From Minisyncoccota bacterium (lineage in GTDB: Bacteria; Patescibacteriota; Minisyncoccia; Phycocordibacterales; UBA9973), in assembly GCA_041650615.1 (NCBI GenBank), contig JBAZKU010000001.1, positions 319,277 to 383,276 on the forward strand: a DNA stretch of 64,000 bases, given 5' to 3'. The first letter of the stretch is position 1; each line of letters opens with the position of its first letter. This document shows, piece by piece, positions 10,846 to 44,185 of the stretch. The position numbers and the translations under genes are program-made. Under the pieces are notes generated by a model. That model was not told the origin of the DNA. It was given only the letters and a program-made list of their open reading frames with translations, and ran no database searches.

Positions 10846-11154
10846 TTATTTTTTAGCTTTCAACTCCTTCCTTTTCTGTGTTGGCTTTTTCTTCGGCAAT
10901 ACATTTACTTTCTTACCTTCTATAGCTTTTTGATGTACCATAAAATTATGCATTGTGTCGGAAAGTTTCGCTCCTTTAGAAACCCAATATTTTATTCTAT
11001 CAACTTCAAACTTTGTTTCCCCCGCTTTTGGATTATAAGTACCGACTATTTCCAAAAATTTTCCGCTTTTGGTGCTGTTTTTTGAATCAGTCAAAACCGC
11101 CCGGAACGATGGGTCATTCTTTCTGCCAATTCTTTGTAATCTTATTTTTAACAT
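10846..11154 (-). CDS. rpsP: 30S ribosomal protein S16
   Basis: MLKIRLQRIGRKNDPSFRAV...GTYNPKAGETKFEVDRIKYWVSKGAKLSDTM matches bS16. Confidence 0.93.
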   Translation of the reverse strand: MLKIRLQRIGRKNDPSFRAVLTDSKNSTKSGKFLEIVGTYNPKAGETKFEVDRIKYWVSKGAKLSDTMHNFMVHQKAIEGKKVNVLPKKKPTQKRKELKAKK

Positions 11155-11216
11155 ATTGCTATACTAGCATAAAAATTTTAAAAGGCAAACACGAAAAATT
11201 ATGTTATATTAAAAGA

Positions 11217-13172
11217 GTGAAAAAGGAAGCAAAAAAAATCCCCAAAAAAATTCAAGGTATTATTTCTATTTCTTCCAAAGGTACTGGATATGTAAAGGTT
11301 CTAGATGAAGAGAGTCGCCTCCTCGGTGACCTGTCGGAGAGGCAGGATGTAGAAATTGATTTTAGACATTTAAATACGGCTCTTCACGGCGATACGGTTG
11401 AAATTATATTACATTCAAAAGGAAAAGGCCGTCTAACAGCTGAAGTATCAAAAATAATTTCGCGAGCAAAGGTTGGTTTTTCTGGAGTTTTGGAAAAAGA
11501 AGACGGCATATTCTTTTTGAAACCGGACGATACAAAAATGTATACGGATATTTTAATATCCCCTATAATGTTAAATGGGGCAAAAGCCGGACAAAAAGTT
11601 TATGCGGAAATAATATCTTGGAAAGACCCACTCAAAGCACCGGAAGGTAAAGTGATAAAAATTTTGGGCAAACCGGGCGACAATAATGCTGAAATGTATG
11701 CTATAGCGCTAGAGAAAGGTTTTGATAGCGACCTGCCAAGAAAAGTGGAAGAAGAAGCACAAAAAATTAAAGCTCTTGGTGTTAAAGATGAAGACTTTGC
11801 GGGAAGACGCGATTTTAGAAAAACTCTTACTTTTACTATTGATCCGGAGAATGCAAAAGATTTTGATGATGCTATTTCATTTAAAGAAATTGAAAAAGAT
11901 AAATATGAAATAGGTATCCACATAGCCGATGTAACACATTATGTAAAAATCGGAAGTGAGCTTGATAAGGAAGCAAAAAAACGAGGAACCTCAGTATATT
12001 TGGTCGACAGAACAATATCAATGCTTCCGGAAATTCTTTCCAACGATTTATGTTCCCTCTTGCCCCATAAAGACAGACTTTCTATGAGTGCGGTTTTTGT
12101 GTTAGATAAAAACGCAAAGGTTTTAAAAGAATGGTATGGACGCACAGTGATAAATTCTAAGAAGAGATTTACTTATGAGGAAGCGGAAGAATCTATTAAA
12201 AAAAGTTCGGCGCCATTTCACAAAGAACTTTCTATTTTGAACAATTTGGCAAAAAAATTAACCAGAGAAAGATTCGCGAATGGTGCAATTTCGCTTGACC
12301 AAGAAGAAGTAAAATTTATTTTGGATAAAAGTGGAATACCGATAAAAGTAATAAAAAAGGAACGAGGTGATTCAAACAGATTGATTGAAGAATTTATGCT
12401 TTTGGCAAATAAAAAAGTCGCGGAAACAATTTCAAAAGGCATAAAAAATGAAAAGGGTGTATTTGTTTATCGTATACATGACAGCCCAAGCAAGGAAAAA
12501 ATGACCGACTTGGCATTTTTCCTAAGAAGTTTAGGACATAAGGTATCCTTGGTGGATGGAATCATTCCAACTTATGAAATAAACAATCTTTTAAAAAGCT
12601 TGTCGGGTAAAAATGAAGAAGACACAGTCCAACGCGCAGTAGTGCGTTCTATGGCAAAAGCTATTTATTCTACAAAAAATATAGGGCATTATGGTTTGGC
12701 TTTTGAATATTATGCCCATTTTACTTCCCCCATCAGACGATATCCAGACATAGTGGTACACAGACTTTTGACTGATTATTTAAAAGGATTAAAAGTAGGC
12801 AAGGAAAAATTAAGTATTTATGAGGAAATTTCCAGAAAATCATCAGAGCGAGAAAAATATGCGGCAGATGCTGAAAGAGCTTCCATTAAATATAAACAGG
12901 TTGAGTATATGTCTTTCCGTGTCGGGAAAATTTTTAGAGGAATTGTGAGTGGAATAACCGAATGGGGCATTTATGTGGAAGAAGAAGAAACAAAGTGCGA
13001 GGGACTCGTGCGTGTGCGGGATATGAAAGATGATTTTTATGTTTTTAATGAAAAAAAATTGGAATTGGTTGGGAAAAAAAGAAAGAAAAAATACCGTTTG
13101 GGTGATCGTGTTAAAATAAAAGTAAAAAATGTTGATTTGGAAAGAAAAACAATAGATTACGTATTGAATTGA
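11217..13172 (+). CDS. rnr: Ribonuclease R (RNB family 3'-5' exoribonuclease, cold-shock + RNB + S1 domains)
   Basis: RNB catalytic region (DDAISF...GIHIADVTHYV; HYGLAFEYYAHFTSPIRRYPD) and C-terminal S1-like/basic tail. Track ORF (11013..) overlaps rpsP on the opposite strand, so the start was moved to in-frame GTG at 11217 (ORF track evidently renders GTG/TTG starts as M); exact start uncertain. Confidence 0.85.
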   Translation: MKKEAKKIPKKIQGIISISSKGTGYVKVLDEESRLLGDLSERQDVEIDFRHLNTALHGDTVEIILHSKGKGRLTAEVSKIISRAKVGFSGVLEKEDGIFFLKPDDTKMYTDILISPIMLNGAKAGQKVYAEIISWKDPLKAPEGKVIKILGKPGDNNAEMYAIALEKGFDSDLPRKVEEEAQKIKALGVKDEDFAGRRDFRKTLTFTIDPENAKDFDDAISFKEIEKDKYEIGIHIADVTHYVKIGSELDKEAKKRGTSVYLVDRTISMLPEILSNDLCSLLPHKDRLSMSAVFVLDKNAKVLKEWYGRTVINSKKRFTYEEAEESIKKSSAPFHKELSILNNLAKKLTRERFANGAISLDQEEVKFILDKSGIPIKVIKKERGDSNRLIEEFMLLANKKVAETISKGIKNEKGVFVYRIHDSPSKEKMTDLAFFLRSLGHKVSLVDGIIPTYEINNLLKSLSGKNEEDTVQRAVVRSMAKAIYSTKNIGHYGLAFEYYAHFTSPIRRYPDIVVHRLLTDYLKGLKVGKEKLSIYEEISRKSSEREKYAADAERASIKYKQVEYMSFRVGKIFRGIVSGITEWGIYVEEEETKCEGLVRVRDMKDDFYVFNEKKLELVGKKRKKKYRLGDRVKIKVKNVDLERKTIDYVLN

Positions 13173-13173: not shown

Positions 13174-15054
13174 ATGAAGGATATTATCAGACTAAAAATT
13201 AAATTCGGATTTTGGATAACATCTGCCATTATTATTGGTATATTTTTTTCTTCTCTTCTATTAAAAGGCGTTTCGTACAAACAAACAGAATCACAAAAAA
13301 GTGCTGCCATAGTGATAGAATCTTTGGCTTCAGAAGAAACAACGCCTCAATATTTTTATTTCACCAAGGATCCAAGTCAAAAACCTAAGGTCGGGGCAGG
13401 AGCATACCTAGTCGGTGACCTAGATACAGGAGAAATTATTTTGACAAAAAATGAAGATAGGCAATTCCCAATTGCCTCGGTTTCCAAGCTTATGACAGCA
13501 ACTCTTGCAACAGAATTAATGAAACCGGATGATATAGCTTCAGTTTCTAAAAAGGCGCTAAGTACTTATGGAGAAAATGGTAATTTAAAATTGGGAGAAA
13601 AAATAAAAATTTCAGATCTTATTTATCCCCTACTCTTAGAATCAAGCAATGATGCGGGAGAAGTAATAGCTGAATATTTCGGCAGAGATATTTTTATAAA
13701 AAAAATGAATCAAATGGCTCTTAAGTTGGAATTGTCTAAAACCACTTTTGAAGACCCAAGCGGACTTTCTATAAAAAATCAATCAACCGTTTTTGACATG
13801 TTTAAATTAGCGGGATACATAAATCAAAAAAACCCGGGGTTACTTAAAATTACGACAGAAAAAAGTTACTCTAATAAAAAACATATTTGGTTTAGCAATA
13901 ATCAATTTCTCCACGAAGATGGTTATTTGGGCGGGAAAAGCGGATACACAGACCCCGCTCTGCAAACAGTTGTTTCCCTTTTTTCCATTCCCTTGGGAGA
14001 ATCCGGGGCACGTAATATAGCCATTACTCTTTTGCAAAGCAAAGACCGTTACAAGGATGTGGAAAGCATTTTAAAATATTTGAATAAAAATATATATTAT
14101 GGAGGAGAAACCGACGCTAATACTGCCTGGGTAAAAGAAAGAACCGATATCCCTTTTTATGACCAAGATTTTGTCGCTCTTTCTTTTGGCGGGGATATGA
14201 TGCTTGACCGCGGAGTAGAAAGTTCCGTAAATAAAAACTTTAATGGAGATTATTCAATTCTTTTTGAAAAACTTGGAATCTTAAAAAAATCGGATATTGC
14301 TTTTGCTAATCTAGAGGGTCCGGCCTCCGACACGGGTAAAGATATGCGTAATCTATATTCGTTTAGAATGAGCCCTTCCGTTATCCCCGCCTTAAAAGGA
14401 GCGGGATTATCTATAGTTTCGGTTTCCAATAATCATGCCGGAGACTGGGGACGAGATGCCTATAGCGATACATTAGCAAATTTAAAAGAAAATGAAATTT
14501 TATACACAGGAGGAGGAATAAATGAAAGTGAAGCCGAACAACCGATTGTTATTGAAAAATATGGAATGAAAATAGGATATTTAGGGTTTTCGGATGTAGG
14601 ACCAAATTGGATGAAAGCAACAGGGAATGAAGCCGGAGTACTTCTTGCAAGCAATCCTCGCTTTGACGAAATAGTGCAAAATGCTTCCAAACAAGTTGAT
14701 TATTTAGTGGTAACGTTTCATTTTGGAGAAGAATATCAAACCGAACATAATGCCAGACAAGAATATCTGGCGCATAAAGCGATAGATGCCGGCGCGAAAA
14801 TTATAATCGGCACGCATCCACACGTAGTGGAAGATACGGAAGTTTATAAAAATGGTTTTATCGCTTATTCTTTGGGCAACCTTATTTTTGACCAGGGCTT
14901 TTCGCAAAATACCATGCAAGGCATGCTTCTGGAAATTAAATTAAACAGAGATGGAAGTATGTCTATAAAGAAAAATACCGTTAAATTAAACAAATTTTTC
15001 CAGCCAGATAAAATAATTTTAGGTAAAGAGGAAAAAGTGGTTTTTGAGAAATAA
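13174..15054 (+). CDS. Fusion: membrane-anchored S11 D-Ala-D-Ala carboxypeptidase (PBP5-like) + CapA/PgsA-family metallophosphatase domain
   Basis: N-terminal TM; SxxK (SVSKLMT), SxN (ESSNDAG), KSG (KSGYTDP) motifs of DD-carboxypeptidase; C-terminal half has CapA motifs (GGDMMLDRGV, FANLEGP, SVSNNHAGDWG, HFGEEYQ, GTHPHVVED, SLGNLIFDQ). Confidence 0.75.
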   Translation: MKDIIRLKIKFGFWITSAIIIGIFFSSLLLKGVSYKQTESQKSAAIVIESLASEETTPQYFYFTKDPSQKPKVGAGAYLVGDLDTGEIILTKNEDRQFPIASVSKLMTATLATELMKPDDIASVSKKALSTYGENGNLKLGEKIKISDLIYPLLLESSNDAGEVIAEYFGRDIFIKKMNQMALKLELSKTTFEDPSGLSIKNQSTVFDMFKLAGYINQKNPGLLKITTEKSYSNKKHIWFSNNQFLHEDGYLGGKSGYTDPALQTVVSLFSIPLGESGARNIAITLLQSKDRYKDVESILKYLNKNIYYGGETDANTAWVKERTDIPFYDQDFVALSFGGDMMLDRGVESSVNKNFNGDYSILFEKLGILKKSDIAFANLEGPASDTGKDMRNLYSFRMSPSVIPALKGAGLSIVSVSNNHAGDWGRDAYSDTLANLKENEILYTGGGINESEAEQPIVIEKYGMKIGYLGFSDVGPNWMKATGNEAGVLLASNPRFDEIVQNASKQVDYLVVTFHFGEEYQTEHNARQEYLAHKAIDAGAKIIIGTHPHVVEDTEVYKNGFIAYSLGNLIFDQGFSQNTMQGMLLEIKLNRDGSMSIKKNTVKLNKFFQPDKIILGKEEKVVFEK

Positions 15055-15060
15055 AAAAGC
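15041..15060. repeat. Left copy of 19-20-bp direct repeat TTTTTGAGAAATAAAAAAGC (right copy at 16121..16139)
   Basis: Identical except one A in the A-run; the two copies bracket a 1.06-kb segment with two minus-strand genes; left copy is the last codons + stop of the CapA-fusion gene. Confidence 0.6.
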
Positions 15061-15102
15061 CACACAACTTTAGTTATGCGACTTTCCATATAAAAAAGAA
15101 AA

Positions 15103-15522
15103 TTAACAATATCTTTCGGATCCAACACAAAGACAAAGAACTAAACAAAATATAAACACCACAACAACATCAAGAGCAACTATCACGGAAAGTACCACAC
15201 ATAACATCTTTATACCAATCATTATAATACCAGTTGCAGGCCATTGTAGGGACATAATTCCTGTAAGAATACTTACCCAACCGATAATTCCGATAATTCC
15301 AGCAATTAAGATTAGCAATTGTTCATAGGAATTATCAAATGAATTTTTTAAAAACCCCTTAATAATTAAAACAATTATTGTTAGTACCCCTGATACAGCT
15401 ATCATTCCAGAAGTATAATTTTGATTTAATTCACCAATAATGCTGATTAAACAAACAACAAGAATAACAATGAATACTGCAAAAAAACGAAAAAGGGATG
15501 TTTCCATGACATATCTCCTCAA
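15103..15522 (-). CDS. Small polytopic membrane protein, unknown function
   Basis: 139 aa, about four hydrophobic helices, no recognisable motif. Confidence 0.4.
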   Translation of the reverse strand: MRRYVMETSLFRFFAVFIVILVVCLISIIGELNQNYTSGMIAVSGVLTIIVLIIKGFLKNSFDNSYEQLLILIAGIIGIIGWVSILTGIMSLQWPATGIIMIGIKMLCVVLSVIVALDVVVVFIFCLVLCLCVGSERYC

Positions 15523-15637: not shown

Positions 15638-16018
15638 TTAAGGTTTTTTTACATAAGATTTGGCTAATTTAAATGTCTTGAAGTTATCCCCTATTTTTAT
15701 TTCTTTTAGATAATCCAAAAAATCTTTTGGCAACGGAGAAGGTCCAACCCAGACACTTTTTTGAATCATTATATAGCCGAACTTTATTAGGTGTCTTCGT
15801 AGCCAATCACGTTCTTTCTTTTGCTGTTCCGGGATATCATACATTAAAATTAAGTTCTTAGAAGAATTTTTCTTAAAAGGCGAAGAAAAAGTAATATGAT
15901 AAAAATTTCTTTTTCTGTTTTCTTTTTTTGTTCTATTTTTCCTCCCTTCTAAGAAGATTGGAATACCTAAAGAATTTACTCTTACTCCTTTATAAAATAA
16001 TTTTCTTTTCGAACTCAT
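15638..16018 (-). CDS. Cas2/VapD-superfamily small endoribonuclease-like protein with a basic N-terminal extension (orphan; no Cas1 or CRISPR array in window)
   Basis: LILMYDIPEQQKKERDWLRRHLIKFGYIMIQKSVWVG...DNFKTFKL fits the Cas2/VapD pattern (hhhhYDhx7Rx2Lx3Lx3Gx2hQxSVax; cf. Cas2 LVLVTYDV...RLRKVAKVCQNYGQRVQNSVFEC and VapD LAFDL...LRQELELLGFEWTQGSVYV). ~45-aa Lys/Arg-rich N-terminal extension. Confidence 0.45.
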   Translation of the reverse strand: MSSKRKLFYKGVRVNSLGIPIFLEGRKNRTKKENRKRNFYHITFSSPFKKNSSKNLILMYDIPEQQKKERDWLRRHLIKFGYIMIQKSVWVGPSPLPKDFLDYLKEIKIGDNFKTFKLAKSYVKKP

Positions 16019-16173: not shown

Positions 16174-18411
16174 TTATTTGGCAATTGCGGCGGCTTCGTC
16201 AAGTTTTACTGAGAGAAGTTTTGAAGCACCGTCGTTGCCGATAGTGACACCATATAGGATACCGGCGCGGGACATTGTTTCCCTGTTATGGGTAACAACG
16301 ATGAGCTGTGAATGACGAGAAAGTTTTTCTAACATATCTCCGTATTTACGAGAATTAGCTTCATCAAGTGCTGCATCTGTCTCATCTAGAACCAAAAAGG
16401 GCGGAGGGTTTACTTGGGACATGGCAAAAAGAAGAGCAATAGAGGTAAGAGACCTTTCTCCTCCCGAGAGCGCTTTGAGTTCCTTTACTTTTTTATGCGG
16501 AAGCGAAACATTGATTTCAATACCCTGTTCAGGGACAATTTCCTCCTCATCTTCCATATTTTCTTCCAAATCTCCTTCTTCTCCTTCTTTTTTCTGTTTA
16601 TTTTCAGTTATAACAGAAAGATACCCTGTTCCCCCGCCGAACATTAATGAAAAGAATTTTCCAAATTCCACGTTTATTTTTTCAACGCCTTCTTTAAACT
16701 CCATATCTATTTTCTCTTTCAAGTCGGCTATAAGTTTGCGGAGTGATTCTATGCTTGTTACCAAATCTTCCATTTCTTTCGCTAGAAAATTATCCCTTTC
16801 TGAAACTTCTTCAAATTCTTTAATCAGCTCAGACCCCCCGCCTAGGCCGACATCTTCCAGTTTCATTTTGATGCGTTCAATTTTTTTTCTTAGTTCTTCT
16901 TGCGTATTTCTATCTATTGACCCGTTTATTTCGAAATTTTTATAAGATAAGATTTCACTGCCAATAAGCACTGAACCTTCTTTTATTTCATTTTCATACG
17001 CTTCCACCTCTTTTGACAAATTTTCTTCCTTTACGGCTATAAGCCCCAGAGAAGAGGATAATTCTTGTTGTCTGACTCTAAAATTAAATTTTTCCTTCTC
17101 CCTGGAGTGTAAAATTTCGTTTTCCTGATTTATTTCCTTTTTCAATATTTCTATTTTTTCAATAATTTTCTTTTCTTCGTTTTCAATATTCTGCATTTCA
17201 GCCAAAATCTTTTGTTTTTCTATCTTTAAATTCTCTAATTCTTCGTTTGTAGAAAGTTTTTCTGTTTTATAAGAATAATGATTAAATTTATTTAAAATAT
17301 CTTTTATTCTAAAAAGAATAATTTTAATTTCCGCTGCATTTTCTTCTATTATTGCTTCTTCTATCTCGTTATTAATCTCGTTAAAAATTTCTTTTATTTC
17401 TTCTGGATTTTGGATTGCAATTTCTGGTGCTTTCTTACTTCTGCGCTCTTCCATCTCTATCATTCCTTCTATTCTTCCTAATTTACGCTCTATCTCACTT
17501 CTAATTGCGCGAATTTCACCGATTTTTTTCTCAAATATTTTTAATTCTTTTTCTTTTTCACTTTCTTCCTTTTTATTTATTTCTTCGACGCTGGAAATCT
17601 TCTCTTTAATATTTTCCAATTCCGCAGAAATTTTATTTTTTTCCAAAAATAAGCTTGATTGTTCCTTTTCCAAATAAACACTTTCCTTCTTCAAATATTC
17701 CCTATAAAGAGATAATAAGGTCGCTTGCATTTCTTTTGCTTTTTCAAATTTATCTACCTGTTTCTTAAGGAAATTCAAATGGGGGGCATTTTCCCGGCGT
17801 AAAAGCGAGACTTCCTTCATATTATTGGTTGTTTTTTCCAATTTGCGTCCGGCTTCTTTAATTTTGTATTGATAAATTTTAAGGCCGAGAGCATCTTCCA
17901 CCATTTCCCTTCTGTCTTTTGGCGACGCATTCAAAATCCTATCCGCTTCGCCTTGTGAAATAATATGATGCCCAGAAGAACCGATATTAACCGACGATAA
18001 AAGATTGTTGATATCTTTTAATCTTACTTCCGAACCGTTTAAAATATATTTATTCAATCCGTCAGAATAAACTTCGCGGGAAATTGAGATGATATCGTAA
18101 TTCAGATTAATATCTTCGCCTCCCTCATTAGAGAGCTTGAAAACCTTATCAGAATTATCAAAATATATGGTAACGGTCGCGCGCGAGCTTTTTGGCAGAT
18201 TTTTGGATCCTTTAAAAATTAAATCGGAACCTAAGCTTCCCCGCATTGATTTCATTGATTGTTCGCCCAAAACAAAACGAAGCGCTTCTACCACATTTGA
18301 CTTACCAGACCCGTTGGGGCCCACAATAGAAACAATGGGATTTTGGAATTCCAAAATTGTTTTTTTATAAAAAGATTTAAAGCCGTTTATTTCAAGATTT
18401 TTAAGTCGCAT
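16174..18411 (-). CDS. smc: Compact SMC-family chromosome segregation ATPase (745 aa)
   Basis: N-terminus MRLKNLEINGFKSFYKKTILEFQNPIVSIVGPNGSGKSNVVEALRFVLGEQS (Walker A) and C-terminus LSGGERSLTSIALLFAMSQ...LVLDETDAALDEAN (signature + Walker B) with Glu/Lys-rich coiled coil between; no obvious canonical hinge domain. Confidence 0.85.
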   Translation of the reverse strand: MRLKNLEINGFKSFYKKTILEFQNPIVSIVGPNGSGKSNVVEALRFVLGEQSMKSMRGSLGSDLIFKGSKNLPKSSRATVTIYFDNSDKVFKLSNEGGEDINLNYDIISISREVYSDGLNKYILNGSEVRLKDINNLLSSVNIGSSGHHIISQGEADRILNASPKDRREMVEDALGLKIYQYKIKEAGRKLEKTTNNMKEVSLLRRENAPHLNFLKKQVDKFEKAKEMQATLLSLYREYLKKESVYLEKEQSSLFLEKNKISAELENIKEKISSVEEINKKEESEKEKELKIFEKKIGEIRAIRSEIERKLGRIEGMIEMEERRSKKAPEIAIQNPEEIKEIFNEINNEIEEAIIEENAAEIKIILFRIKDILNKFNHYSYKTEKLSTNEELENLKIEKQKILAEMQNIENEEKKIIEKIEILKKEINQENEILHSREKEKFNFRVRQQELSSSLGLIAVKEENLSKEVEAYENEIKEGSVLIGSEILSYKNFEINGSIDRNTQEELRKKIERIKMKLEDVGLGGGSELIKEFEEVSERDNFLAKEMEDLVTSIESLRKLIADLKEKIDMEFKEGVEKINVEFGKFFSLMFGGGTGYLSVITENKQKKEGEEGDLEENMEDEEEIVPEQGIEINVSLPHKKVKELKALSGGERSLTSIALLFAMSQVNPPPFLVLDETDAALDEANSRKYGDMLEKLSRHSQLIVVTHNRETMSRAGILYGVTIGNDGASKLLSVKLDEAAAIAK

Positions 18412-19109: not shown

Positions 19110-20030
19110 TTATTTTTTTGAAATTATCTCAATAGCTTTGGTAATAAGCGGAATAATATCGTTATAAATACGAAGCTCCGGCAACTCTTTAAGCTGAAAC
19201 CAGCGAGCGTTATCCAAGCCCCCGGAGGCTCCGAGCTGGAGTTTTTGGTACTTGCTTTCTGCTAAGAAATATATAACTTTCTTTAAAGTCTTACCATTTT
19301 CCGGATGGGTCGCTACGTATTCGTTTTCTCCGATTTTTTCTCTTATGGAAATATCCAGGCCGATTTCTTCTTTTATTTTTTTAATTGTACTTTCTTCCAC
19401 ATTTTCCCCATTTTCTATTCTGCCTTTGGATAGAGTCCAATAACCAAAAACATCATGCACTAGCGCAAAAAAAATATCACTTCCTTTTTTTGCATAGACC
19501 AACGCTCCTCCCAGCTTTTCAATCGGCAATTTTGTAATATCCAAAGGTTCTTCCGCTTTTTTCTTTTTACTTATTTGTTCCTTGCCAGGTTCGCCGATTT
19601 CTTTATAGACTGCGCCTAATACACCATTTACGAATTTGCCGGAGTTTTCCCCGCCGAAAGTTTTAGCTAATTCTATCGCCTCATTAATGGCTACTTTCGG
19701 AGGCACTTGACTCCTGTCACCGAAAAGAAGCTCAGTCAATCCAATTCTTAAAATATTTCTATCTACTATGGAAATTTTATCTAATGGCCAATCGGGCGCG
19801 GCCTTTTTTATTATTTCATCAACTACTTTACTTTTTTTTAATACTTCTTCGGTTAAGGAAAAGACAAAAACATCGTCCTCCAGTCCAGGAGCGAATTCTT
19901 TAAGATTCCTATTGAGAGCTTCTTTTGTTTTTTCACTATTCCAAACTTTGCCTTTTTCTTCGGCAGTCATAAAATCCCACTCAAAAAGCGTTTGAAGTAC
20001 TATTGATCTTGAAAGGTGCCTATTTGCCAT
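19110..20030 (-). CDS. nusB: Fusion protein: NusB antitermination factor (N-terminal) + Nudix hydrolase (C-terminal)
   Basis: [29 protein letters not shown] nearly identical to E. coli Nus[30 protein letters not shown]; C-terminal ~150 aa carries a Nudix box [23 protein letters not shown] (Gx5Ex7[RK]EuxEExGu). Confidence 0.8.
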
Positions 20031-31475: not shown

Positions 31476-33557
31476 TCATAGATTTTTGGACCTCACTAAT
31501 CGCTCCCTAATTTTATCACGATAAAAGTTATAGAGCAATAAAATTATAATGACAGCTAATAAAATCGTTTTCCAATCAACGATGTTCAGCCACCAATACT
31601 TGGTCTTGAGTTCAATATTGACATGGACGCCGCTGCCTTCTTTGACTTGAAATGGCTTACCGTCATAAATGAGATACCCGGGGGTTTCTGCCTTAAGATA
31701 ATAGTAGCCCTCGGGAACCAAAAACGAATAAGTGCCCCTAACATCGGTGATTTGAGGATTCTCCTGTTGATACTCTTTGGCCGGCCACATTTCATATTGT
31801 TTGGTTTCGGGATTCAGCCAGTAGAGAGACACGATGGCACCAGGGATACGGGTTTCTTTGTCGCCGTTCCGCTCATAAATATACCCTTCGGGGTCAACCA
31901 CAGTGGTCAAGCGGATTTCTTTCATTCCGAGTTCTGGGTCGTCAAAATCCATAACCGTTATGATCTCGTACTCGCCGGCAACAACAGGCACATCGATTTC
32001 TGCCGTATAGATGCCATCACCGTCTGGATCGGTATATTCAAATTCCAGCAATACTAGTTTTTCTTCAACCCTAACGGGCTGATCCTGGGTCTTGGCAAAA
32101 GCGGGGTTGGCGAAGATCACGGACGCCAGTAAAGAATTCAACGGAACGTCCACAGAGGTCGCTTGGCTAGCTCTTGCCTTAAAAACCACATATCCCTTGA
32201 CGCTCTTAACGGGTTTATCAGGCTTCATTACTAACTGCAGTGGTTTGCCGGAAACAGTGGTGATCTTCTGTTGAGGTTTCCCTTTATCAGAAATGGAAAG
32301 ATCAATGTTAAAATCAATCAGTTCGCCGCCGGTTTTGGCAAAGACAATTTCTGTCGGTAATTGCTGTTTAATCGCCGGCGATAATTCAACCACTGGAACG
32401 CCTTGGGGAAGAGCAAACTTACCGGGTTCAACTTTAGCTATCGGCAAGCCGGCGCGTTCTGTCAGCCCGGGCAAAGTCAATTTGACCGTTTTCAGCTTAG
32501 CAACATCGGTAATCTTGCTGATGCCGACTTCTTCAAGAATTTTCTCAAGTTCTGGAAACTTTTGAGCAAGATTCCTGATCTCCTTGGGCAAGGGCGCCAA
32601 AACGAATTCTCTGATTGGTTCGCTTGGTAAGAGTTGCCATTTACCCTGAAAAGCTAAAGGTGTTTCTTTAGACACTAATTCTTCAATTGGAATTTCTGGC
32701 GGTTTGGTTTCTTCCTCTAATTTTGGCTTAAATATTTCTGGGATTTTTTTGATTATTCCCGGTATCTGCTCAATAATTAATTTCTCTAATTTTGTTTTTT
32801 CCTTTATTCCCAATTTCTCATTAATAAAATCAAAATCTTCCTGACTAAATAGAGAAGGATATTTTTCCATTATTTGAAGGGCATATTGATAATTACCCAT
32901 CTCAATAAGATTTGAAACTTGACTTTGAATTCCGCCGCCTCCGCTGCCTCCGCCGGAAGAACAACTTTGACTTAAGATCGGACTACCGCCGCTACAGCCG
33001 GAAGGAGATGCAGAAATAATAGCCCTAGTTTGCTGTCCTCCCGAACAGCTACTCCAATCGGAATACGTCCAAGAAGTGCAAACTCTCGCGCTTTGCGGTT
33101 GCCAATCGGTTTTAACTTTGTAATCCCCGTCAAAAATTATCCAGCCGATATTTTCACCCAAAGCCGAGCCGGTAAATTCGCCAGAAGAATTGATAATTAC
33201 TCCTCCATTGGTCGGATTAAATTTTATCCAACCAGTATTTTCTGACCAAGTATAGCCAGACAAATTTCCTTCGCCATCATTTGTAATGTCGCCCAGATAT
33301 ACCCAGCCAATATTTTCACTCAGGGCGTAACCAGACAATCCAGAATCCGTAACATGAACATCACAATTATCACAGCCAAAATTAAACCAGCCGATATTTT
33401 CTCCCCAAGCGTATTTGTAGCCTTCATTATTTGGGTCAATGGTGCCATCGGTAGACGAGGCCAAGGTGGACTTATTAAAAAATGCAAAAAATCCACTTAT
33501 GAGAAGCATTAAAAATAAAACATAAATTAAATTTTTGGTCGGTATCTTCTTATCCAT
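31476..33557 (-). CDS. Large cell-surface protein with N-terminal signal/TM, four GENIGW-type repeats, Cys/Gly-rich linker and C-terminal TM anchor
   Basis: Repeats YAWGENIGWFNFG / YALSENIGWVYLG / YTWSENTGWIKFN / SALGENIGWIIFDG; CSGGQQ...CSGGSP...CSSGGGSGGGG; C-terminal hydrophobic WKTILLAVIIILLLYNFY. Confidence 0.6.
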   Translation of the reverse strand: MDKKIPTKNLIYVLFLMLLISGFFAFFNKSTLASSTDGTIDPNNEGYKYAWGENIGWFNFGCDNCDVHVTDSGLSGYALSENIGWVYLGDITNDGEGNLSGYTWSENTGWIKFNPTNGGVIINSSGEFTGSALGENIGWIIFDGDYKVKTDWQPQSARVCTSWTYSDWSSCSGGQQTRAIISASPSGCSGGSPILSQSCSSGGGSGGGGIQSQVSNLIEMGNYQYALQIMEKYPSLFSQEDFDFINEKLGIKEKTKLEKLIIEQIPGIIKKIPEIFKPKLEEETKPPEIPIEELVSKETPLAFQGKWQLLPSEPIREFVLAPLPKEIRNLAQKFPELEKILEEVGISKITDVAKLKTVKLTLPGLTERAGLPIAKVEPGKFALPQGVPVVELSPAIKQQLPTEIVFAKTGGELIDFNIDLSISDKGKPQQKITTVSGKPLQLVMKPDKPVKSVKGYVVFKARASQATSVDVPLNSLLASVIFANPAFAKTQDQPVRVEEKLVLLEFEYTDPDGDGIYTAEIDVPVVAGEYEIITVMDFDDPELGMKEIRLTTVVDPEGYIYERNGDKETRIPGAIVSLYWLNPETKQYEMWPAKEYQQENPQITDVRGTYSFLVPEGYYYLKAETPGYLIYDGKPFQVKEGSGVHVNIELKTKYWWLNIVDWKTILLAVIIILLLYNFYRDKIRERLVRSKNL

Positions 33558-33695: not shown

Positions 33696-35432
33696 TTACG
33701 GGCGGAAGACGACACGGAACCCGGTGCTATACGTGACATTATTGCTATTGGAGTACGAGCAAGCGTGCCAACCGGCTACCCGTGCAGTACTGTTTAAGCG
33801 CAACTCTGAAAGCCATTCATAAGTATTTACATTGGCAGTAATAACATTGTCTGTTCGACCAATTTGATTACCATAATTTCCATAAGTTATTGAATTTGTG
33901 CCGTTGCCACAAACACCGAAGAAATCGTTAAAAGTTGGCAAGCGTGTCCCTTTCCACTCTAACAACACTTTCGGGGTTAGAGGTCCGTTGTAACAAGTTT
34001 CATAATCTGTCCCGTCGCAAGTTGCGTCTGGTGCGGTATATCCAAAGGCCTCTACCGCTGCACTAGTTAAAAGATTGCGGATACCATCTTTGCAATCAGC
34101 AATCGCCAGAGCGACACTAGCATCATTTCCATAGTCACTGCGTTCTACGACTGTCCCGCTTAAAGAGGTATTAAGCGTTCCCACGCCATCACCGTCAGTA
34201 TCGCCAGAGCATCCGTAATTGCCAAGGAAAGTATTGTCGTTCGCGGTCGCATTATTCCAGAATTTTGTACCAGCTGGGTCGCGACCATTAGTCCCGCTGT
34301 CAGTTTGAACACAAATAGGATCGTCGCTAGTCCCGTCGTAATTACTATCTGCTATCCATGCCCAGCCAGCGGTTGTGCAAACAGATTGATTTAATCCAGA
34401 AATACCAGAAGGAGTATTGGGGTAGGGAGAAAGAGTCCCTGTAGAATCAACACCGAACGCTGTCCCATAACGAACATTGTTTATACTAAGGTTCGTGGCA
34501 TTAAAAGTGCCTCCGCCTGATCCGTCGCCCTCATTGCCGGCCGTAGTTAATACTTGCGCAGGATCATCATTATCACCATAAAGCCACCCCGCAACCAAAT
34601 TACCGATAATTCCAAATATATTAACATCATTTGCAATGTTCTCCGCAACCAAATCAGGGTCCCCAGTCAAAGTGCCTGCCCCCCAATAACCAGCGACGAC
34701 TTCCTGATCCGTTGAACTGGCAGTTAAATTAAAATCGCCGTTGTTAGTCATTGTGCCAGTAGCAGTGGCACCGTTAATCCATACTATTTTGCCAGATAAT
34801 ACATCCGCAACCGTTATATCGTCAGCATCTGTTATACACCATCTATTAGTTCCATCCCCGTCACCATCATAAGTATTAGAAACCAAATTCCCCGTACCAT
34901 CAAAAGTCGCGGTATTGCAAGCAAGATTAAGAGTTCCAGCGTCTAATGTCCAATCGCCCGTTAAATTAGCGGTTTTGCCATTGAATAAATCAGCTACAAC
35001 TGCTGTGCCCTCGCCTTCAGGAGTTAATGTGCCGGTTACTCCAAGATAAGTCGTGTCTTTTTTAACTTGATCAGAGGAAATCAAACCAGCCAAAGTATTG
35101 TAAATCTCTGTTAGGGTATGCCCCGTACCTGCCAATGCATCGGAGAAAGTAAAATCATGGTCTCCTTCATCGCCCGGATCAGTGTTATTAATTATAAAGT
35201 TATAAATCTCAGAAAGCGTATAAAATTTGCCGGACGGTTCACCCGCACCGCTTGGCGGAGTAATTGTGCCAGCATGAACAACTCCGTAAATTACCAAAAC
35301 AGAAATTAAAACAGTAAGCCCGCCTTTGACAGCGTTGAAAAATCGCGGGCTTTTATTCGGGCTCTTGATATTAAAATTTTTTGATTCGCTAGTGGAAACA
35401 TTATGGATTACCCATTGATCTTTTTTTCTCAT
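33696..35432 (-). CDS. Secreted/surface Gly-Thr-Asp-rich protein with N-terminal signal anchor
   Basis: 578 aa; TM LTVLISVLVIYGVV then low-complexity G/T/D/N-rich sequence with scattered Cys pairs; no recognisable catalytic motif. Confidence 0.5.
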   Translation of the reverse strand: MRKKDQWVIHNVSTSESKNFNIKSPNKSPRFFNAVKGGLTVLISVLVIYGVVHAGTITPPSGAGEPSGKFYTLSEIYNFIINNTDPGDEGDHDFTFSDALAGTGHTLTEIYNTLAGLISSDQVKKDTTYLGVTGTLTPEGEGTAVVADLFNGKTANLTGDWTLDAGTLNLACNTATFDGTGNLVSNTYDGDGDGTNRWCITDADDITVADVLSGKIVWINGATATGTMTNNGDFNLTASSTDQEVVAGYWGAGTLTGDPDLVAENIANDVNIFGIIGNLVAGWLYGDNDDPAQVLTTAGNEGDGSGGGTFNATNLSINNVRYGTAFGVDSTGTLSPYPNTPSGISGLNQSVCTTAGWAWIADSNYDGTSDDPICVQTDSGTNGRDPAGTKFWNNATANDNTFLGNYGCSGDTDGDGVGTLNTSLSGTVVERSDYGNDASVALAIADCKDGIRNLLTSAAVEAFGYTAPDATCDGTDYETCYNGPLTPKVLLEWKGTRLPTFNDFFGVCGNGTNSITYGNYGNQIGRTDNVITANVNTYEWLSELRLNSTARVAGWHACSYSNSNNVTYSTGFRVVFRP

Positions 35433-40861: not shown

Positions 40862-41653
40862 TTAGAAACCAGTCGGGAAAAGATGCAATTCAAAAAGAAA
40901 TGCAATCAATACACCAAGAACTAAAAATGGAGCAAATGAAATTTCACTTTTCATTCCATACTTTTTTGAAAAAACGATAAGGAGAAATCCTATTATCGCC
41001 CCCGACCAAAAAGCCATTACTGCACCTGAAAGAATTCTATTAAATCCGAGGAGCCATCCCAACCCTAAAGCTAATTTAGCATCCCCAAGACCCATCCAAG
41101 TGCCGGAAGACACAAGCCAAATAAGCGCAAAGGGCAGAGCTAATAGTATCCCCGACAAAAATTCTAAAATGGATGGAAGATGAATATAAAATCCATATTC
41201 CGTAAAGAAAAACAGTCCAATAAAAGCTACAATACCAAAAATAAGAGATAAGATGTCAGGAATTACTTTATGTTTGAAATCATAAACCGCAATAACCAAG
41301 AGAAGAGAAAACATCACGGCATAATAGGCGTAAGAAACGGAAAACACAAGCGTGTTTATGAAAAAAACATCTTGAAACTTTAAAAATAACCCCGCAAAAA
41401 TCAATCCTGATATAAGTTCCACTATCGGATATTGAATAGAGATTTTGGTTTTGCAATTTTTGCATCTTCCTCTTAGGGCAAAAAAACTAATTAGAGGAAT
41501 AAGTTCATACCAACAAAGTTTGTTTTGGCAAGTCATACATCCGCTTCTTCCACCGAAAGAGCGTGCTGTATTAAATCTGAATATGACAACATTTAAAAAA
41601 CTTCCGATAATAAGACCAAAAATAAAGAAAACAATTGTTAGAAAAAAAGTCAT
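40862..41653 (-). CDS. pilD: Prepilin peptidase PilD (A24 family aspartic peptidase/N-methyltransferase)
   Basis: N-terminal TM + Zn-binding CxxC...CxxC (CMTCQNKL...CKNCKTKI), polytopic body with conserved Asp-containing helices. Confidence 0.9.
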   Translation of the reverse strand: MTFFLTIVFFIFGLIIGSFLNVVIFRFNTARSFGGRSGCMTCQNKLCWYELIPLISFFALRGRCKNCKTKISIQYPIVELISGLIFAGLFLKFQDVFFINTLVFSVSYAYYAVMFSLLLVIAVYDFKHKVIPDILSLIFGIVAFIGLFFFTEYGFYIHLPSILEFLSGILLALPFALIWLVSSGTWMGLGDAKLALGLGWLLGFNRILSGAVMAFWSGAIIGFLLIVFSKKYGMKSEISFAPFLVLGVLIAFLFELHLFPTGF

Positions 41654-41656
41654 ATT

Positions 41657-42160
41657 TTATGGACAAGCATAGCTAGAACCCGCCAAAACAGCAGTAACCT
41701 GTTTTGAAGCCCCAGTGGAATCAACGCACCAAGCGACAATAGAACCAGAAGCAGAAGCCTTGAGCGGAACAAAGGCTGCCCAAGCACTTGCGTTATCGTG
41801 ACATTGCGCAGTATTCCATGTGCTTGCTGTAGCATCTGCGTATGTTGTAACGCTTCCGTCATAAGTATTTTCAGCGGCATTTACCATAGTGCCAATAACA
41901 TTAGAACCTGAAGTAGCACAAACTCCTTCATATGTTCCAGTAGCACTATTGAGGTAAAAAACCTCTGCTTGTGCGCGGGCATTGGCTAAATTGGATTTTA
42001 TATTCGCATCAGAACCTTTTGACCTGGCACTGTTGAGTGAAGCTAAAACCACACTTGCCAAAATACCGATTATGGCAACTACGACCAAAAGTTCAATTAA
42101 TGTAAAACCGGACACTTTACTTGAAAGCGTGTGGTTAAAACCTTTTTTAAATAAATTCAT
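41657..42160 (-). CDS. Type IV pilin paralog 2 with 11-codon palindromic insert splitting the GFTLIE motif (likely start MNLFKKGF...; track ORF extends to 42211)
   Basis: MNLFKKGF-NHTLSSKVSGF-TLIELLVVVAIIGILASVVLASLNSAR...; first 8 and following 30+ residues identical to neighbouring pilin 42283..42771 except for the insert. Confidence 0.8.
   Translation of the reverse strand: MNLFKKGFNHTLSSKVSGFTLIELLVVVAIIGILASVVLASLNSARSKGSDANIKSNLANARAQAEVFYLNSATGTYEGVCATSGSNVIGTMVNAAENTYDGSVTTYADATASTWNTAQCHDNASAWAAFVPLKASASGSIVAWCVDSTGASKQVTAVLAGSSYACP
42103..42142. mobile_element. 33-bp in-frame insert in pilin paralog 2, flanked by 7-bp direct repeat TAAAACC (mRNA sense GGTTTTA)
   Basis: Plus strand TAAAACC-GGACACTTTACTTGAAAGCGTGTGGT-TAAAACC; insert has imperfect inverted ends ACACGCTTT/AAAGTGT; the uninterrupted paralog has a single GGTTTTACA at the same place. 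Confidence 0.65.
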
Positions 42161-42229
42161 AATAAAAAACATGGTTAAACTAATAAAAAGACCTTTAAAT
42201 CTATTAATCAATTATATCAAATATAAAAA

Positions 42230-42260
42230 ACAAAAACCACCCGAAAAAGGTGGTTTTTGT
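42230..42260. terminator. Bidirectional Rho-independent terminator after the major pilin gene
   Basis: aaaaaACCACCcgaaaaaGGTGGTttttt; perfect stem flanked by A and T runs. Confidence 0.6.
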
Positions 42261-42282
42261 TAATAAAAATCAAATTAATAAA

Positions 42283-42771
42283 TTATGGACATGCATAAAC
42301 TCCAGATCCGAGAGATGTTGATTCTTTAGAGGCACCAGTAGAATCCACACACCAGCCCGAACTCGTAGTAGAACCTTTTAATGATACTATGGCTGCCCAA
42401 GCAGTCCCGCTGTCATGACACACTGCAGCAGTTGTAGCCCCTGCAGCGGGGGAAGCGTTATAAACCCAAATGGTTGAGGCAGGAGTTACAGTTGGAGTAC
42501 TAGCAGAATTAAGCTTTTGGGTAGCATTTAAGATTAAAGGATAAACACCGCCTGTAGTAGCAGACTGACATACGTTAGTATATGTCTGTCCTGAGTCATA
42601 GAACAACTCAGCCTGTGCACGAGCATTAGCCATTGCAGATTTTATAGCTGCATCTGTGCCTTTGGTTCTAGCACTGTTCAAGCTAGCTAACACAACGGAA
42701 GCCAAAATACCGATTATGGCAACTACGACCAAAAGTTCAATTAATGTAAAACCTTTTTTAAATAAATTCAT
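42283..42771 (-). CDS. Type IV major pilin (PilA-like), canonical MNLFKKGFTLIELLVVVAIIGILA
   Basis: Class III signal peptide with G-F-T-L-I-E, Cys pair near C-terminus; own promoter region and terminator (monocistronic). Confidence 0.85.
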   Translation of the reverse strand: MNLFKKGFTLIELLVVVAIIGILASVVLASLNSARTKGTDAAIKSAMANARAQAELFYDSGQTYTNVCQSATTGGVYPLILNATQKLNSASTPTVTPASTIWVYNASPAAGATTAAVCHDSGTAWAAIVSLKGSTTSSGWCVDSTGASKESTSLGSGVYACP

Positions 42772-42808
42772 AATTTTTTTTACTAATAATATTTCAGCCC
42801 TAGGCTGA

Positions 42809-42855: not shown

Positions 42856-42969
42856 TTTTCGACTTATTCTCAATATCCTACTGTATTATAACTTTTATAA
42901 TCCCATATATGCAAAAAAGTTATCCACATATACAAAACAGGTTTTAAGAGCTAGTTACTTCCCTAATTT

Positions 42970-44178: not shown

Positions 44179-44185
44179 AAAAAGA

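Follow-up and report, generated by a model that had tools for sequence, protein, structure and literature searches.

A conserved fusion of an S11 D-Ala-D-Ala peptidase domain with a CapA domain in Paceibacteria, with a probable role in the cell wall

A single gene of Paceibacteria (Patescibacteria/CPR) joins an S11 peptidase domain to a CapA domain of the poly-gamma-glutamate synthesis family. This S11-CapA gene is real and widely conserved in ultra-small Patescibacteria, and its product is very probably a genuine bifunctional enzyme linked to peptidoglycan. On balance, we favor a membrane-anchored enzyme that would act in two steps on the stem peptide, with chemistry like that of the epimerase MslH being the most likely for its CapA domain. 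CapA/PgsA proteins are widespread, serve as a surface-display anchor, and are required for the polyglutamate capsules of pathogens. To our knowledge, their molecular activity has never been shown, and the only characterized relative is an epimerase acting at a peptide C terminus. We found no paper describing the S11-CapA fusion by text matching, which was noisy (e.g., "capa" also matches "capacity"); its sequences are already public, and the fusion itself is undescribed in the literature searched.

Gene, reading frame, and surroundings

The window, which is the whole 64-kb stretch of DNA that was analyzed, carries the fusion gene among the following features.

11013..13172 (ORF limits), plus strand: RNase R gene, upstream, with RNB, CSD2, and S1 domains
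13174..15054, plus strand: S11-CapA fusion ORF, ATG start, 626 aa plus stop, complete
15054..15087, minus strand: terminator-like hairpin in the convergent gap past the fusion gene, a 15-pair stem and then a T run on the minus strand (pattern match only)
15103-15522, minus strand: 139-aa membrane ORF downstream of the fusion gene, with no Pfam match

The fusion ORF reads through 626 codons with no stop and no frame break. Because the TGA stop of RNase R lies only 1 nt ahead of the fusion ATG (…AAT TGA C ATG…), the two genes are likely cotranscribed; the true start of RNase R is probably further downstream than the ORF limit at 11013. An identical protein (P0001), encoded on a 598,563-bp contig, is present in NCBI, JGI, and ENA. 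NCBI labels it a "CapA family protein" of a Paceibacterota MAG, and public annotations name it a poly-gamma-glutamate synthesis protein. Its neighbors in the window (TrmD, KhpA, S16, RNase R, SMC, RNase III, and NusB) are housekeeping genes for translation, RNA, and the chromosome that provide no pathway clue to the fusion. The 139-aa membrane ORF, which also had no match in a synteny scan of 42 related loci, is likewise uninformative for fusion function. Also present in the window are a type IV pilus cluster and two secreted proteins, both very large, that contain peptidoglycan-binding domains.

The original prediction, that one gene fuses an S11 peptidase with CapA, is borne out by the two Pfam domains found in this single ORF and by their distribution. 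All of the best 120 database proteins (120/120) carry both PF00768 and PF09587, and in another 33 loci, drawn from genomes of different GTDB species, the two halves likewise share one reading frame. Since the fusion persists across so many independent assemblies and in at least 120 database clusters, we can for practical purposes exclude a frameshift or a chimeric join. A merger of two neighboring genes by sequencing or assembly error is, therefore, vanishingly improbable, and the region that joins the two halves is itself conserved and structured in the predicted model.

Membrane anchor and S11 peptidase domain

An AF2 model of the fusion protein (pLDDT, 86; pTM, 0.76) and Pfam searches delimit its N-terminal half as follows, with the three active-site motifs assigned by motif reading.

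13177..13266, plus strand: N-terminal membrane anchor, aa 2-31, an AF2 helix with a K/R-rich start and then a hydrophobic helix, MKDIIRLKIKFGFWITSAIIIGIFFSSLLL
13270..13341, plus strand: low-confidence stalk between anchor and S11, aa 33-56 (pLDDT of <50)
13378..13977, plus strand: Peptidase_S11, aa 69-268 (Pfam PF00768; E value, 4.3e-36)
13477..13488, plus strand: SxxK active-site motif, S102-V-S-K105
13642..13650, plus strand: SxN motif, S157-S-N159
13936..13944, plus strand: KxG motif, K255-S-G257, the KTG box equivalent
14041..14169, plus strand: interdomain linker, aa 290-332, with helices 292-306, 312-316, and 318-324 (pLDDT mostly 75-95)

Because of the N-terminal anchor, the S11 and CapA domains would both lie outside the cytoplasm. 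The model suggests that the stalk is probably flexible.

The S11 assignment is firm. PF00768 scores 125 bits against a cutoff of 27.6, the PDB sequence match is to Bacillus subtilis DacB (3mfd; E value, 6.8e-27), and Foldseek places the same structure first (E value, 5.8e-20; rmsd, 1.9 Å), followed by PBP5, PBP6, K15, and DD-endopeptidases. With class C low-molecular-weight PBPs, such as DacB (3mfd) and Escherichia coli PBP5 and PBP6, the domain shares the penicillin-binding fold and the SxxK, SxN, and KxG motifs. These motifs, which had been proposed for this half of the protein, occur in the expected order and are nearly invariant: among representatives clustered at 50% identity, S and K of SxxK are kept in 79 of 81 aligned domains, S and N of SxN in 81 and 82 of 83, respectively, and K and G of KxG in 77 and 76 of 78.

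The label "PBP5-type D,D-carboxypeptidase" given to this domain nevertheless overstates the match, because the PBP5 C-terminal domain is absent. Pfam detected no PBP5_C beta-sandwich in the protein, and residues 292 to 324 form helices that run directly into CapA. The TM-score to target is 0.8 for single-domain S11 enzymes (e.g., Listeria PBPD2 [5zqa], PBP7-type DD-endopeptidases, and Streptomyces K15) versus 0.6 for the two-domain PBP5 and PBP6. Unlike PBP5, the fusion protein also lacks a C-terminal amphipathic anchor and instead has an N-terminal transmembrane (TM) anchor and a C-terminal CapA domain. In the predicted model, the linker stands in for the PBP5 C-terminal domain. The S11/CapA junction near 14130 falls within this linker, in which residues R292, D295, Y302, Y308, Y309, G310, and W319 are invariant in an alignment of 54 homologs. 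The S11 domain would be a D-Ala-D-Ala peptidase, and its most likely task is to shorten the stem pentapeptide to a tetrapeptide. It may instead act as an endopeptidase or transpeptidase; sequence does not distinguish these activities from carboxypeptidase activity in S11 enzymes.

CapA domain and its relation to MslH and PgsA

The C-terminal half contains the following features.

14179..14895, plus strand: PGA_cap (CapA/PgsA), aa 336-574, calcineurin-like fold (Pfam PF09587; E value, 2e-65)
14194..14196, plus strand: D341 (GGD), equivalent of MslH Asp11; D in 104 of 106 aligned
14314..14316, plus strand: E381 (NLE), equivalent of MslH metal ligand Glu44; E in 111 of 119
14431..14445, plus strand: N420-H421-A-G-D424, equivalents of MslH metal ligand Asn87 and the His88/Asp91 catalytic dyad
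14719..14733, plus strand: H516-F-G-E-E520, with H516 the equivalent of MslH His259 and E520 nearly invariant
14815..14823, plus strand: H548-P-H550, with H550 the equivalent of MslH His295, the second catalytic base
14896..15051, plus strand: C-terminal beta-strand extension of CapA, aa 575-626, strands 582-621, high pLDDT

The domain search that had been suggested as a check thus found CapA alongside Peptidase_S11, at aa 336 to 574 and within the predicted span of residues ~330 to 626; the match covers positions 2 to 255 of the 255-position profile (221 bits against a cutoff of 27). The full CapA/PgsA motif set that had been claimed can be read in the protein, as GGD341, NLE381, N420-H421-x-x-D424, H516-F-G-E-E520, H548-P-H550, and SLGN569. 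Across ~110 to 120 CapA domains (50%-identity representatives), D341, E381, N420, H421, D424, H516, E520, and H550 are kept; for instance, N420 occurs in 114, H421 in 118, and D424 in 120 of ~120 aligned domains, and H550 occurs in 111 of 115. Because these catalytic residues are conserved, some catalysis by CapA is to be expected.

The closest solved structure to the C-terminal half is MslH (PDB 8gq9; Foldseek E value, 9e-20), a metal-dependent epimerase of Streptomyces that acts on the C-terminal Trp of a lasso peptide (PMC10406935, PMC8179263). MslH uses two His/Asp dyads, H88/D91 and H295/D11, and a single metal bound by Glu44, Asn87, His259, and His261, with no phosphoesterase role (PMC10406935). 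For CapA, the MslH authors have proposed a role in PGA synthesis as a peptide epimerase (PMC8179263). In the fusion protein, the corresponding dyads are H421/D424 and H550/D341, which are nearly invariant in the family. E381, N420, and H516 match the metal ligands E44, N87, and H259, and the position of His261 is taken by Gly518, as in PgsA (HWGQEY), with E520 two residues on. The likeness has its bounds. Identity to MslH is ~17% over the structural alignment, and the fusion protein scores 58.8 against a cutoff of 700 for the NCBIfam MslH equivalog NF038314. MslH is, moreover, a cytoplasmic protein of 440 aa with extra substrate-binding elements and an RRE partner in a RiPP cluster, whereas the fusion gene has housekeeping neighbors and no lasso-peptide (RiPP) cluster with a precursor and RRE.

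By sequence, the CapA domain is far closer to B. subtilis PgsA (CapA, YwtB; PGA_cap), which is one subunit of the poly-gamma-glutamate synthase PgsBCA(E), with 34% identity over 277 aa (E value, 1e-46) to a comparison sequence confirmed by exact lookup. The two proteins have in common the motifs GD, N-x-E, NNHxxD, H-[WF]-G-x-E, HPH, and SLGN, and the alignment of the C-terminal extension reaches ~aa 320 of PgsA. Each also carries one N-terminal TM helix that places its catalytic domain beyond the membrane, a topology predicted from the AF2 helix for the fusion and determined by PhoA fusion for the periplasm-facing PgsA (PMC7490850). PgsA differs from the fusion protein, which is joined to a D-Ala-D-Ala peptidase, sits in a housekeeping context, and has relatives with peptidoglycan-enzyme partners. 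We know of no demonstrated catalytic activity for PgsA.

The original prediction called the CapA half a metallophosphatase, a term that suits its calcineurin-like fold. This name can be taken to describe the fold only, because the motif I His of the D-x-H motif in binuclear phosphoesterases is missing (G-G-D341-M-M, or GDMM) and because the only characterized close structural relative, MslH, is an epimerase. We regard it as improbable that CapA is a phosphoesterase acting beside the S11 site on an envelope substrate that contains phosphate, for instance, precursors linked to undecaprenyl-pyrophosphate or wall polymers with phosphodiester linkages. The fold itself, the retained GNH[D/E]-like NNHxxD and GHxH-like HPH motifs, and a weak Metallophos match in one relative (P0165) would fit such an activity. 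However, the fusion protein has no PF00149 (Metallophos) match at an E value of ≤0.01, its GDMM motif agrees with the single-metal site of MslH, and the fusion partners are all directed at peptides or glycans, with none directed at phosphate.

Sister architectures at a shared locus

The partners of CapA in this clade bear on its role. In the synteny scan, RNase R lies directly upstream of the gene in 38 of the 42 related loci, and in many of them, RNase R and SMC are its immediate neighbors on the two sides, in the order RNase R -> X <- SMC. This slot is occupied by S11-CapA, as in the window, and elsewhere by YkuD-S11-CapA (L033), by CapA alone (L034, L036, and L037), by a polysaccharide deacetylase gene plus CapA-VanY (L043, L045, and L046), or by S11-CapA-CapA-VanY (L048). 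Because CapA is always present in this slot in Paceibacteria, with changing partners, it is evident that two unrelated D-Ala-D-Ala carboxypeptidase folds, S11 and VanY, pair with CapA and replace each other at one locus.

Pfam checks of 150 representatives identified 24 YkuD+S11+CapA, 13 S11+CapA, 9 CapA+VanY, 5 S11+CapA(+CapA)+VanY, and 2 CapA+deacetylase proteins, plus others. Among close CapA representatives, 48 of 103 have no recognized partner domain, and some of these are fragments. The sister architectures belong to the same CapA subfamily (~50% identity) and the same clade, and several occupy the same RNase R/SMC slot; they differ from the window version in partner domain and domain order. 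The partners are VanY (M15 D-Ala-D-Ala or L,D-carboxypeptidase), YkuD (L,D-transpeptidase), and polysaccharide deacetylase, and JGI names some of them LdcB-type L,D-carboxypeptidase. In a distant triple fusion (L047), the stop codon abuts the start of a downstream gene for an Amidase_3+PG_binding_1 protein. In the triple fusions nearest to the fusion protein, YkuD has lost its catalytic Cys, and the window version has dropped the YkuD domain entirely. Stand-alone CapA genes outside the slot (L039, L041, and L042) have cation ATPase, TauE, PrfB-FtsE-FtsX, amidase, and TIM as neighbors, with no consistent signal.

The same loci bear on whether the fusion could be a true capsule protein, whose CapA domain would make poly-gamma-glutamate with PgsB and PgsC encoded elsewhere while S11 attaches or positions the polymer on peptidoglycan. 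This idea fits the 34% identity to PgsA of B. subtilis, the presence of every family motif, the same single-TM outward topology, and the public annotation as a poly-gamma-glutamate synthesis protein. In the producers known to us, however, pgsB, pgsC, and pgsA form one operon, and tblastn searches with PgsB and PgsC gave no match in the window, which covers 64 kb of the genome (598 kb or more), or in the 42 related loci (~700 kb). A capsule operon at this locus was rejected on this basis. The PgsC half of the test is the weaker one, because its query sequence failed exact confirmation, while the PgsB query was a confirmed sequence. The pgsBCAE operon is the system used in PMC7490850. Given also that RNase R and SMC directly flank the gene in many loci and that the range of partners (VanY, YkuD, deacetylase, and amidase) concerns peptidoglycan rather than polyglutamate, we consider a capsule function very improbable.

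The suggestion that CapA has a cell-wall role in this lineage, by contrast, gains from the VanY, YkuD, and deacetylase fusions and the adjacent Amidase_3 gene. Domain association points to this role, and the case is strengthened because cell-wall partners swap at one slot that is without pgsB and pgsC nearby. A domain fusion, nevertheless, points to functional coupling and not to a reaction.

Proposed function

We propose that the fusion is one membrane-anchored protein with both catalytic domains facing the cell wall. In this model, S11 would act first on the stem peptide, and CapA, as an active single-metal calcineurin-fold enzyme, would carry out a second step on the same stem peptide and take no part in poly-gamma-glutamate synthesis. 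Three elements of this model are inferred: that the domains face outward, that the enzyme works on the peptidoglycan of its own cell, and that CapA is an epimerase. The CapA reaction may be an MslH-like, metal-assisted acid/base epimerization that inverts the C-alpha of a residue whose alpha-carboxylate is free. This residue could be the C-terminal one that carboxypeptidase action newly exposes, or it could be the gamma-linked iso-glutamate, which is chemically the unit of poly-gamma-glutamate.

That the CapA step is an epimerization should be taken as tentative, and the more specific proposal, of an extracytoplasmic stem-peptide epimerase that inverts the exposed C-terminal residue or iso-glutamate by single-metal acid/base chemistry as in MslH, is somewhat more doubtful. 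We know of no biochemical activity for any member of the fused S11-CapA family, of no physiological need for epimerizing a stem-peptide residue, and of no precedent for the epimerization of peptidoglycan after assembly. A search on glutamate or alanine racemases of Patescibacteria turned up nothing pertinent.

CapA might instead be a hydrolase in the dismantling or recycling of stem peptides that cleaves a further bond, such as that between gamma-D-Glu and the diamino acid. The order of events would then be removal of D-Ala5 by S11, removal of D-Ala4 by VanY- or LdcB-type partners, and cleavage by CapA, and the purpose would be either to feed freed amino acids to an auxotrophic, genome-reduced cell or to remodel the wall. 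This account as a whole seems unlikely to us, yet it draws on real observations: most of the partners are enzymes that trim the stem peptide step by step from its C terminus (S11 and VanY), some are LdcB-type L,D-carboxypeptidases by JGI name, an Amidase_3 gene is adjacent in the distant triple fusion, and the CapA catalytic residues are conserved. Weighing on the other side, the only characterized close relative is an epimerase, and amide-bond hydrolysis is not known for any calcineurin-fold enzyme, a view that also draws on the discussion of MslH in PMC10406935.

The target could also differ. The organism is a Paceibacterota MAG, and Patescibacteria have been characterized as depending largely on hosts (PMC11665869); an epibiotic cell might use the enzyme to weaken or harvest the peptidoglycan of its host where the two cells touch. 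The type IV pilus cluster and the two very large secreted peptidoglycan-binding proteins in the window would suit such a life. In contrast, the uncleaved N-terminal anchor and the short stalk of ~25 residues in the model would keep the enzyme at its own membrane, and the gene occupies a core syntenic housekeeping position rather than an accessory island, which makes a host-wall target quite improbable. Because this reading concerns the target and not the chemistry, it is compatible with the two-step stem-peptide enzyme that we favor.

Implications

A whole bacterial class joins CapA to, or sets it beside, enzymes that act at the C-terminal end of the stem peptide. These include two carboxypeptidase folds that interchange. 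The arrangement is a strong hint from nature that CapA chemistry is aimed at D-amino-acid peptides with free alpha-carboxylates. The fusions are soluble single-polypeptide candidates with defined candidate substrates, namely, stem peptides, and through them the cell-wall machinery of Patescibacteria, a group whose envelopes have received little study, gains a conserved part that had not been described. Should the CapA step prove ordinary or purely structural, what is left is a fusion of two known families that is specific to this lineage. If, instead, CapA is a stem-peptide epimerase, it would be the first enzyme known to change amino acid chirality in the assembled cell wall and would provide the first direct functional handle on CapA/PgsA proteins generally.

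Domain architecture of the fusion protein

The fusion gene (13174..15054, plus strand) starts with ATG and runs through 626 codons in a single uninterrupted frame. The original prediction had placed the motif sets of an S11 peptidase and of CapA in this one open reading frame (ORF), and the motif positions bear it out: S102-V-S-K105, S157-S-N159, and K255-S-G257 for S11, and GGD341, NLE381, N420-H421-A-G-D424, H516-F-G-E-E520, H548-P-H550, and SLGN for CapA. The expected domains were both found by Pfam, Peptidase_S11 at residues 69-268 (E 4.3e-36; 125 bits against a cutoff of 27.6) and PGA_cap at residues 336-574 (profile positions 2-255 of 255; E 2e-65; 221 bits against 27). NCBIfam matches all stayed below threshold: the N half matched DD-endopeptidase and DacD/DacA equivalogs, and the C half matched MslH, a lasso-peptide epimerase. 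Every sequence and fold test applied places the protein in Peptidase S11 and PGA_cap.

The AlphaFold2 model (mean pLDDT 86, pTM 0.76) contains the following elements beyond the two domains.

Residues 2-31: N-terminal helix with a K/R-rich beginning, then a hydrophobic stretch
Residues 33-56: stalk, low confidence
Residues 292-324: inter-domain linker of ordered helices
To residue 621: beta extension at the C terminus of CapA

The helix at residues 2-31 is probably an uncleaved membrane anchor. PgsA, the Bacillus subtilis CapA, has one transmembrane segment, with its bulk facing the periplasm, as evidenced by PhoA fusion (PMC7490850). The fusion protein would share this topology, with a single transmembrane segment and both domains outside; the S11 domain must sit outside the membrane because a D-Ala-D-Ala peptidase has to reach its substrate there.

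Foldseek matched the N half to B. subtilis DacB in the PDB (3mfd, rmsd 1.9 Å), and also to PBP5/PBP6, DD-endopeptidases, Listeria PBPD2, and Streptomyces K15. The TM-score to the target was ~0.8 for single-domain enzymes versus ~0.6 for two-domain PBP5/6. In the PBP5-specific test the protein differs from PBP5, whose C-terminal domain is absent from it; the label "PBP5-type" was right about the S11 peptidase and is otherwise only loosely apt. The C half matched MslH (8gq9, E 9e-20), its sole PDB relative also recovered by sequence search.

Gene neighborhood and reality of the fusion

In the window, the neighbors of the fusion gene are housekeeping genes, and no cell-wall operon surrounds it. 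The order is as follows.

Before RNase R, minus strand: TrmD, KhpA, S16
Plus strand: RNase R, its TGA ending 1 nt ahead of the fusion's ATG
13174..15054, plus strand: fusion gene
Downstream, all minus strand: 139-aa membrane ORF, PaaX/Cas2-like ORF (15638-16018), SMC (16174-18411), RNase III, NusB-NUDIX (19110-20030)
After NusB-NUDIX, plus strand: ThrRS

NusB and a NUDIX hydrolase form one 306-aa protein, an arrangement kept in nearly all related loci. The small ORF matches the central Cas2-like domain of PaaX and shows a weak match to CRISPR Cas2, although no CRISPR setting was seen nearby; depending on the locus it lies beside the fusion gene, lies kilobases off, or is absent. The SMC-family protein has only 745 aa, a short form conserved here in related loci; canonical bacterial SMC is much longer (~1,180 aa).

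NCBI, JGI, and ENA list an identical protein, P0001, which is encoded on a 598,563-bp contig and named [quoted passage not shown] PF00768 and PF09587 occur together in all 120 best database matches (63-100% identity), whose lengths are 592-658 aa except for one 520-aa fragment. Scanning GTDB at one genome per species yielded 42 loci, all from Patescibacteria MAGs except one "Burkholderiales," two "uncultured bacterium," and one "bacterium" record. The gene order is conserved, with RNase R immediately upstream in 38 of them and SMC downstream in most. The distribution of the fusion, which the original prediction had left to be checked, proved broad: 33 of the 42 loci join the two halves in a single frame, as the window does, and one more has a three-domain version. 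Moreover, 54 aligned homologues share a conserved inter-domain segment, with R292, D295, Y302, Y308, Y309, G310, and W319 invariant. A frameshift or chimeric join is therefore excluded for practical purposes by the comparative evidence of a conserved fusion with a conserved, ordered linker.

Two loci hold damaged copies in the same slot between RNase R and SMC. One (L040:5043-5931) has its S11 part spread over two frames and only ~43 CapA residues, and in the other (L038:924-2558) a stop or frameshift breaks CapA. The damage reflects either decay to a pseudogene or a mistake in assembly.

Partner swapping and wider architectures

The slot is occupied in several ways. S11-CapA fills it in the window and 33 loci, and a 792-aa YkuD-S11-CapA protein does so in L033. 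L034, L036, and L037 hold only a membrane-anchored CapA, which is 63-73% identical to the C half of the window protein; in L043, L045, and L046 a polysaccharide-deacetylase gene precedes one for a CapA-VanY fusion; and L048 holds a 1189-aa S11-CapA-CapA-VanY protein. CapA is the constant element of the slot, and what varies is its partner. Its D-Ala-D-Ala carboxypeptidase partner has either a serine (S11) or a zinc (VanY/M15) fold, and this replacement of S11 by a non-homologous carboxypeptidase at the same locus is strong evidence that CapA function is coupled to the removal of C-terminal D-Ala from stem peptides.

Domain architectures among the best 150 representatives only
CapA alone: 48 (some are fragments)
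YkuD+S11+CapA: 24
S11+CapA: 13
CapA+VanY: 9
Memo+CapA: 4
S11+CapA+CapA+VanY: 3
S11+CapA+VanY: 2
CapA+CapA: 2
CapA+polysaccharide deacetylase: 2
Single cases include: S11+VanY+CapA, S11+CapA+deacetylase, Memo+CapA+YkuD, CapA+beta-propeller

CapA is recurrently and interchangeably paired with peptidoglycan enzymes, chiefly ones that act at the stem peptide's C-terminal end. CapA-VanY proteins form a large family (both domains in 120 of 120 best matches), its named members being Nomurabacteria or Paceibacterota. YkuD-S11-CapA proteins also form a large family, with named matches from Parcubacteria, Ryanbacteria, Patescibacteria, and Paceibacterota; these taxon names rest on about a quarter of database entries. 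In L047, a distant member, the next gene, its start abutting the stop, encodes Amidase_3+PG_binding_1.

The match lists contain no named relative outside Patescibacteria bar one "Burkholderiales" MAG. Its contig (L010; JAMPXW010000001.1, 276,871 bp) carries the full Paceibacterial gene order (TrmD-KhpA-S16, RNase R-fusion, PaaX-like-SMC-RNase III-NusB/NUDIX-ThrRS), so the MAG was very probably misbinned or mislabeled. Paceibacteria synteny also occurs in many TPA MAGs titled "uncultured Candidatus Saccharibacteria."

The L,D-transpeptidase catalytic motif of YkuD, SGGCIRL, is intact in more distant YkuD-S11(-CapA) relatives; the closest relatives of the window protein, which itself lacks a YkuD domain, have another residue in place of the Cys (GAIRL, GGIRL, GWVRL). 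The sets contrasted were L033:9326-11701, P0122, P0123, and P0208 versus P0132, P0134, P0150, P0153, P0155, P0157, P0195, P0241, and P0247. This looks like stepwise decay followed by domain loss. A Memo-like domain (PF01875) lies N-terminal to CapA in P0215, P0235, P0248, P0250, and P0247, and one Memo-CapA representative also has a C-terminal YkuD with its catalytic Cys intact.

Catalytic residues

Conservation was scored in the best 150 representatives of a library clustered at 50% identity (47,821 matches at E<=1e-3; 2,159 at E<=1e-30). S102, K105, S157, N159, K255, and G257 are retained in 76-82 of ~80 aligned S11 domains, and D341, E381, N420, H421, D424, H516, E520, and H550 in 104-120 of ~106-120 aligned CapA domains. 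In MslH, mutagenesis and crystallography showed the dyads His88/Asp91 and His295/Asp11 and the Ca(II) ligands Glu44, Asn87, and His259 to be essential (PMC10406935). The conserved CapA residues align with these dyads and ligands; a fourth ligand, His261, is replaced by Gly in both the fusion protein and PgsA, and a Glu that hardly ever varies follows two positions later. Judged from these residues, both catalytic centers are intact. The protein keeps the catalytic residues of MslH but misses its equivalog threshold and RiPP context.

At phosphoesterase motif I (DxH) the CapA half reads GDMM and so lacks the histidine, and Pfam found no Metallophos match in the protein. Both observations suggest an MslH-like single-metal site rather than a binuclear phosphoesterase center. 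That CapA is a phosphoesterase is improbable, and we rank it below an MslH-like epimerization.

Other features of the window

A type IV pilus gene cluster, with several small ORFs interspersed, occupies 40862-50141 (minus strand).

40862-41653, minus strand: prepilin peptidase
42970-44178, minus strand: PilC-like T2SSF
44186-45244, minus strand: PilT-like ATPase
45427-47178, minus strand: PilB-like ATPase
49014-50141, minus strand: PilM

Two adjacent large proteins (58681-61383 and 61420-63348, both minus strand) end in PG_binding_1. The 900-aa protein has a right-handed beta-helix and a Big_7 domain, and the 642-aa protein has no further recognized domain; both are candidate wall-associated or host-directed surface proteins. 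ORFs 31476-33557 (693 aa) and 33696-35432 (578 aa), both minus strand, have no Pfam match at E<=1e-5 and sit in the window's most G+C-rich part (0.42-0.43 versus ~0.35).

Proposed function and significance

We propose that the S11 domain would take off the terminal D-Ala of the stem peptide and that the CapA domain would next act on the peptide so trimmed. The S11 domain could instead act as a DD-endopeptidase or transpeptidase, such enzymes being among the best NCBIfam and fold matches of this half.

A free alpha-carboxylate beside C-alpha is present in every residue of poly-gamma-glutamate and, in the stem peptide, in the gamma-linked iso-glutamate and the C-terminal residue. MslH, which epimerizes the C-terminal Trp of a Streptomyces lasso peptide, is the only experimentally grounded chemical precedent in the CapA family. 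It activates the carboxylate of the C-terminal residue through a bound metal and inverts C-alpha by means of two His/Asp dyads placed on opposite faces (PMC10406935). Given this precedent and the free alpha-carboxylates at those stem-peptide positions, we tentatively rank first, as a possibility, that the CapA step is an MslH-like epimerization at iso-glutamate or the C-terminal residue. A hydrolytic step in stem-peptide dismantling, which would be unprecedented, is unlikely and ranks below it.

A genuine capsule role for CapA also ranks below epimerization and seems very unlikely. PgsA (CAPA_BACSU) is 34% identical to the C half over 277 residues (E 1e-46), but the fusion gene differs in context from the poly-gamma-glutamate synthase complex: neither pgsB nor pgsC was found in the window or the 42 loci, using a verified PgsB sequence and an unverified PgsC sequence as queries. 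As the target we favor the cell's own wall rather than the host's, because of the short stalk and the core-genome position.

The fusion sequences are public, automatically named "CapA family protein," "poly-gamma-glutamate synthesis protein," or "D-alanyl-D-alanine carboxypeptidase," and we found no paper in the literature on an S11-CapA fusion or a peptidoglycan role for CapA. The fusion gene is made of ordinary parts; it is the partner swapping at its locus that makes CapA function testable, with obvious substrates. This is a lineage-wide domain architecture, and it reassigns the likely substrate of the poorly understood CapA family.
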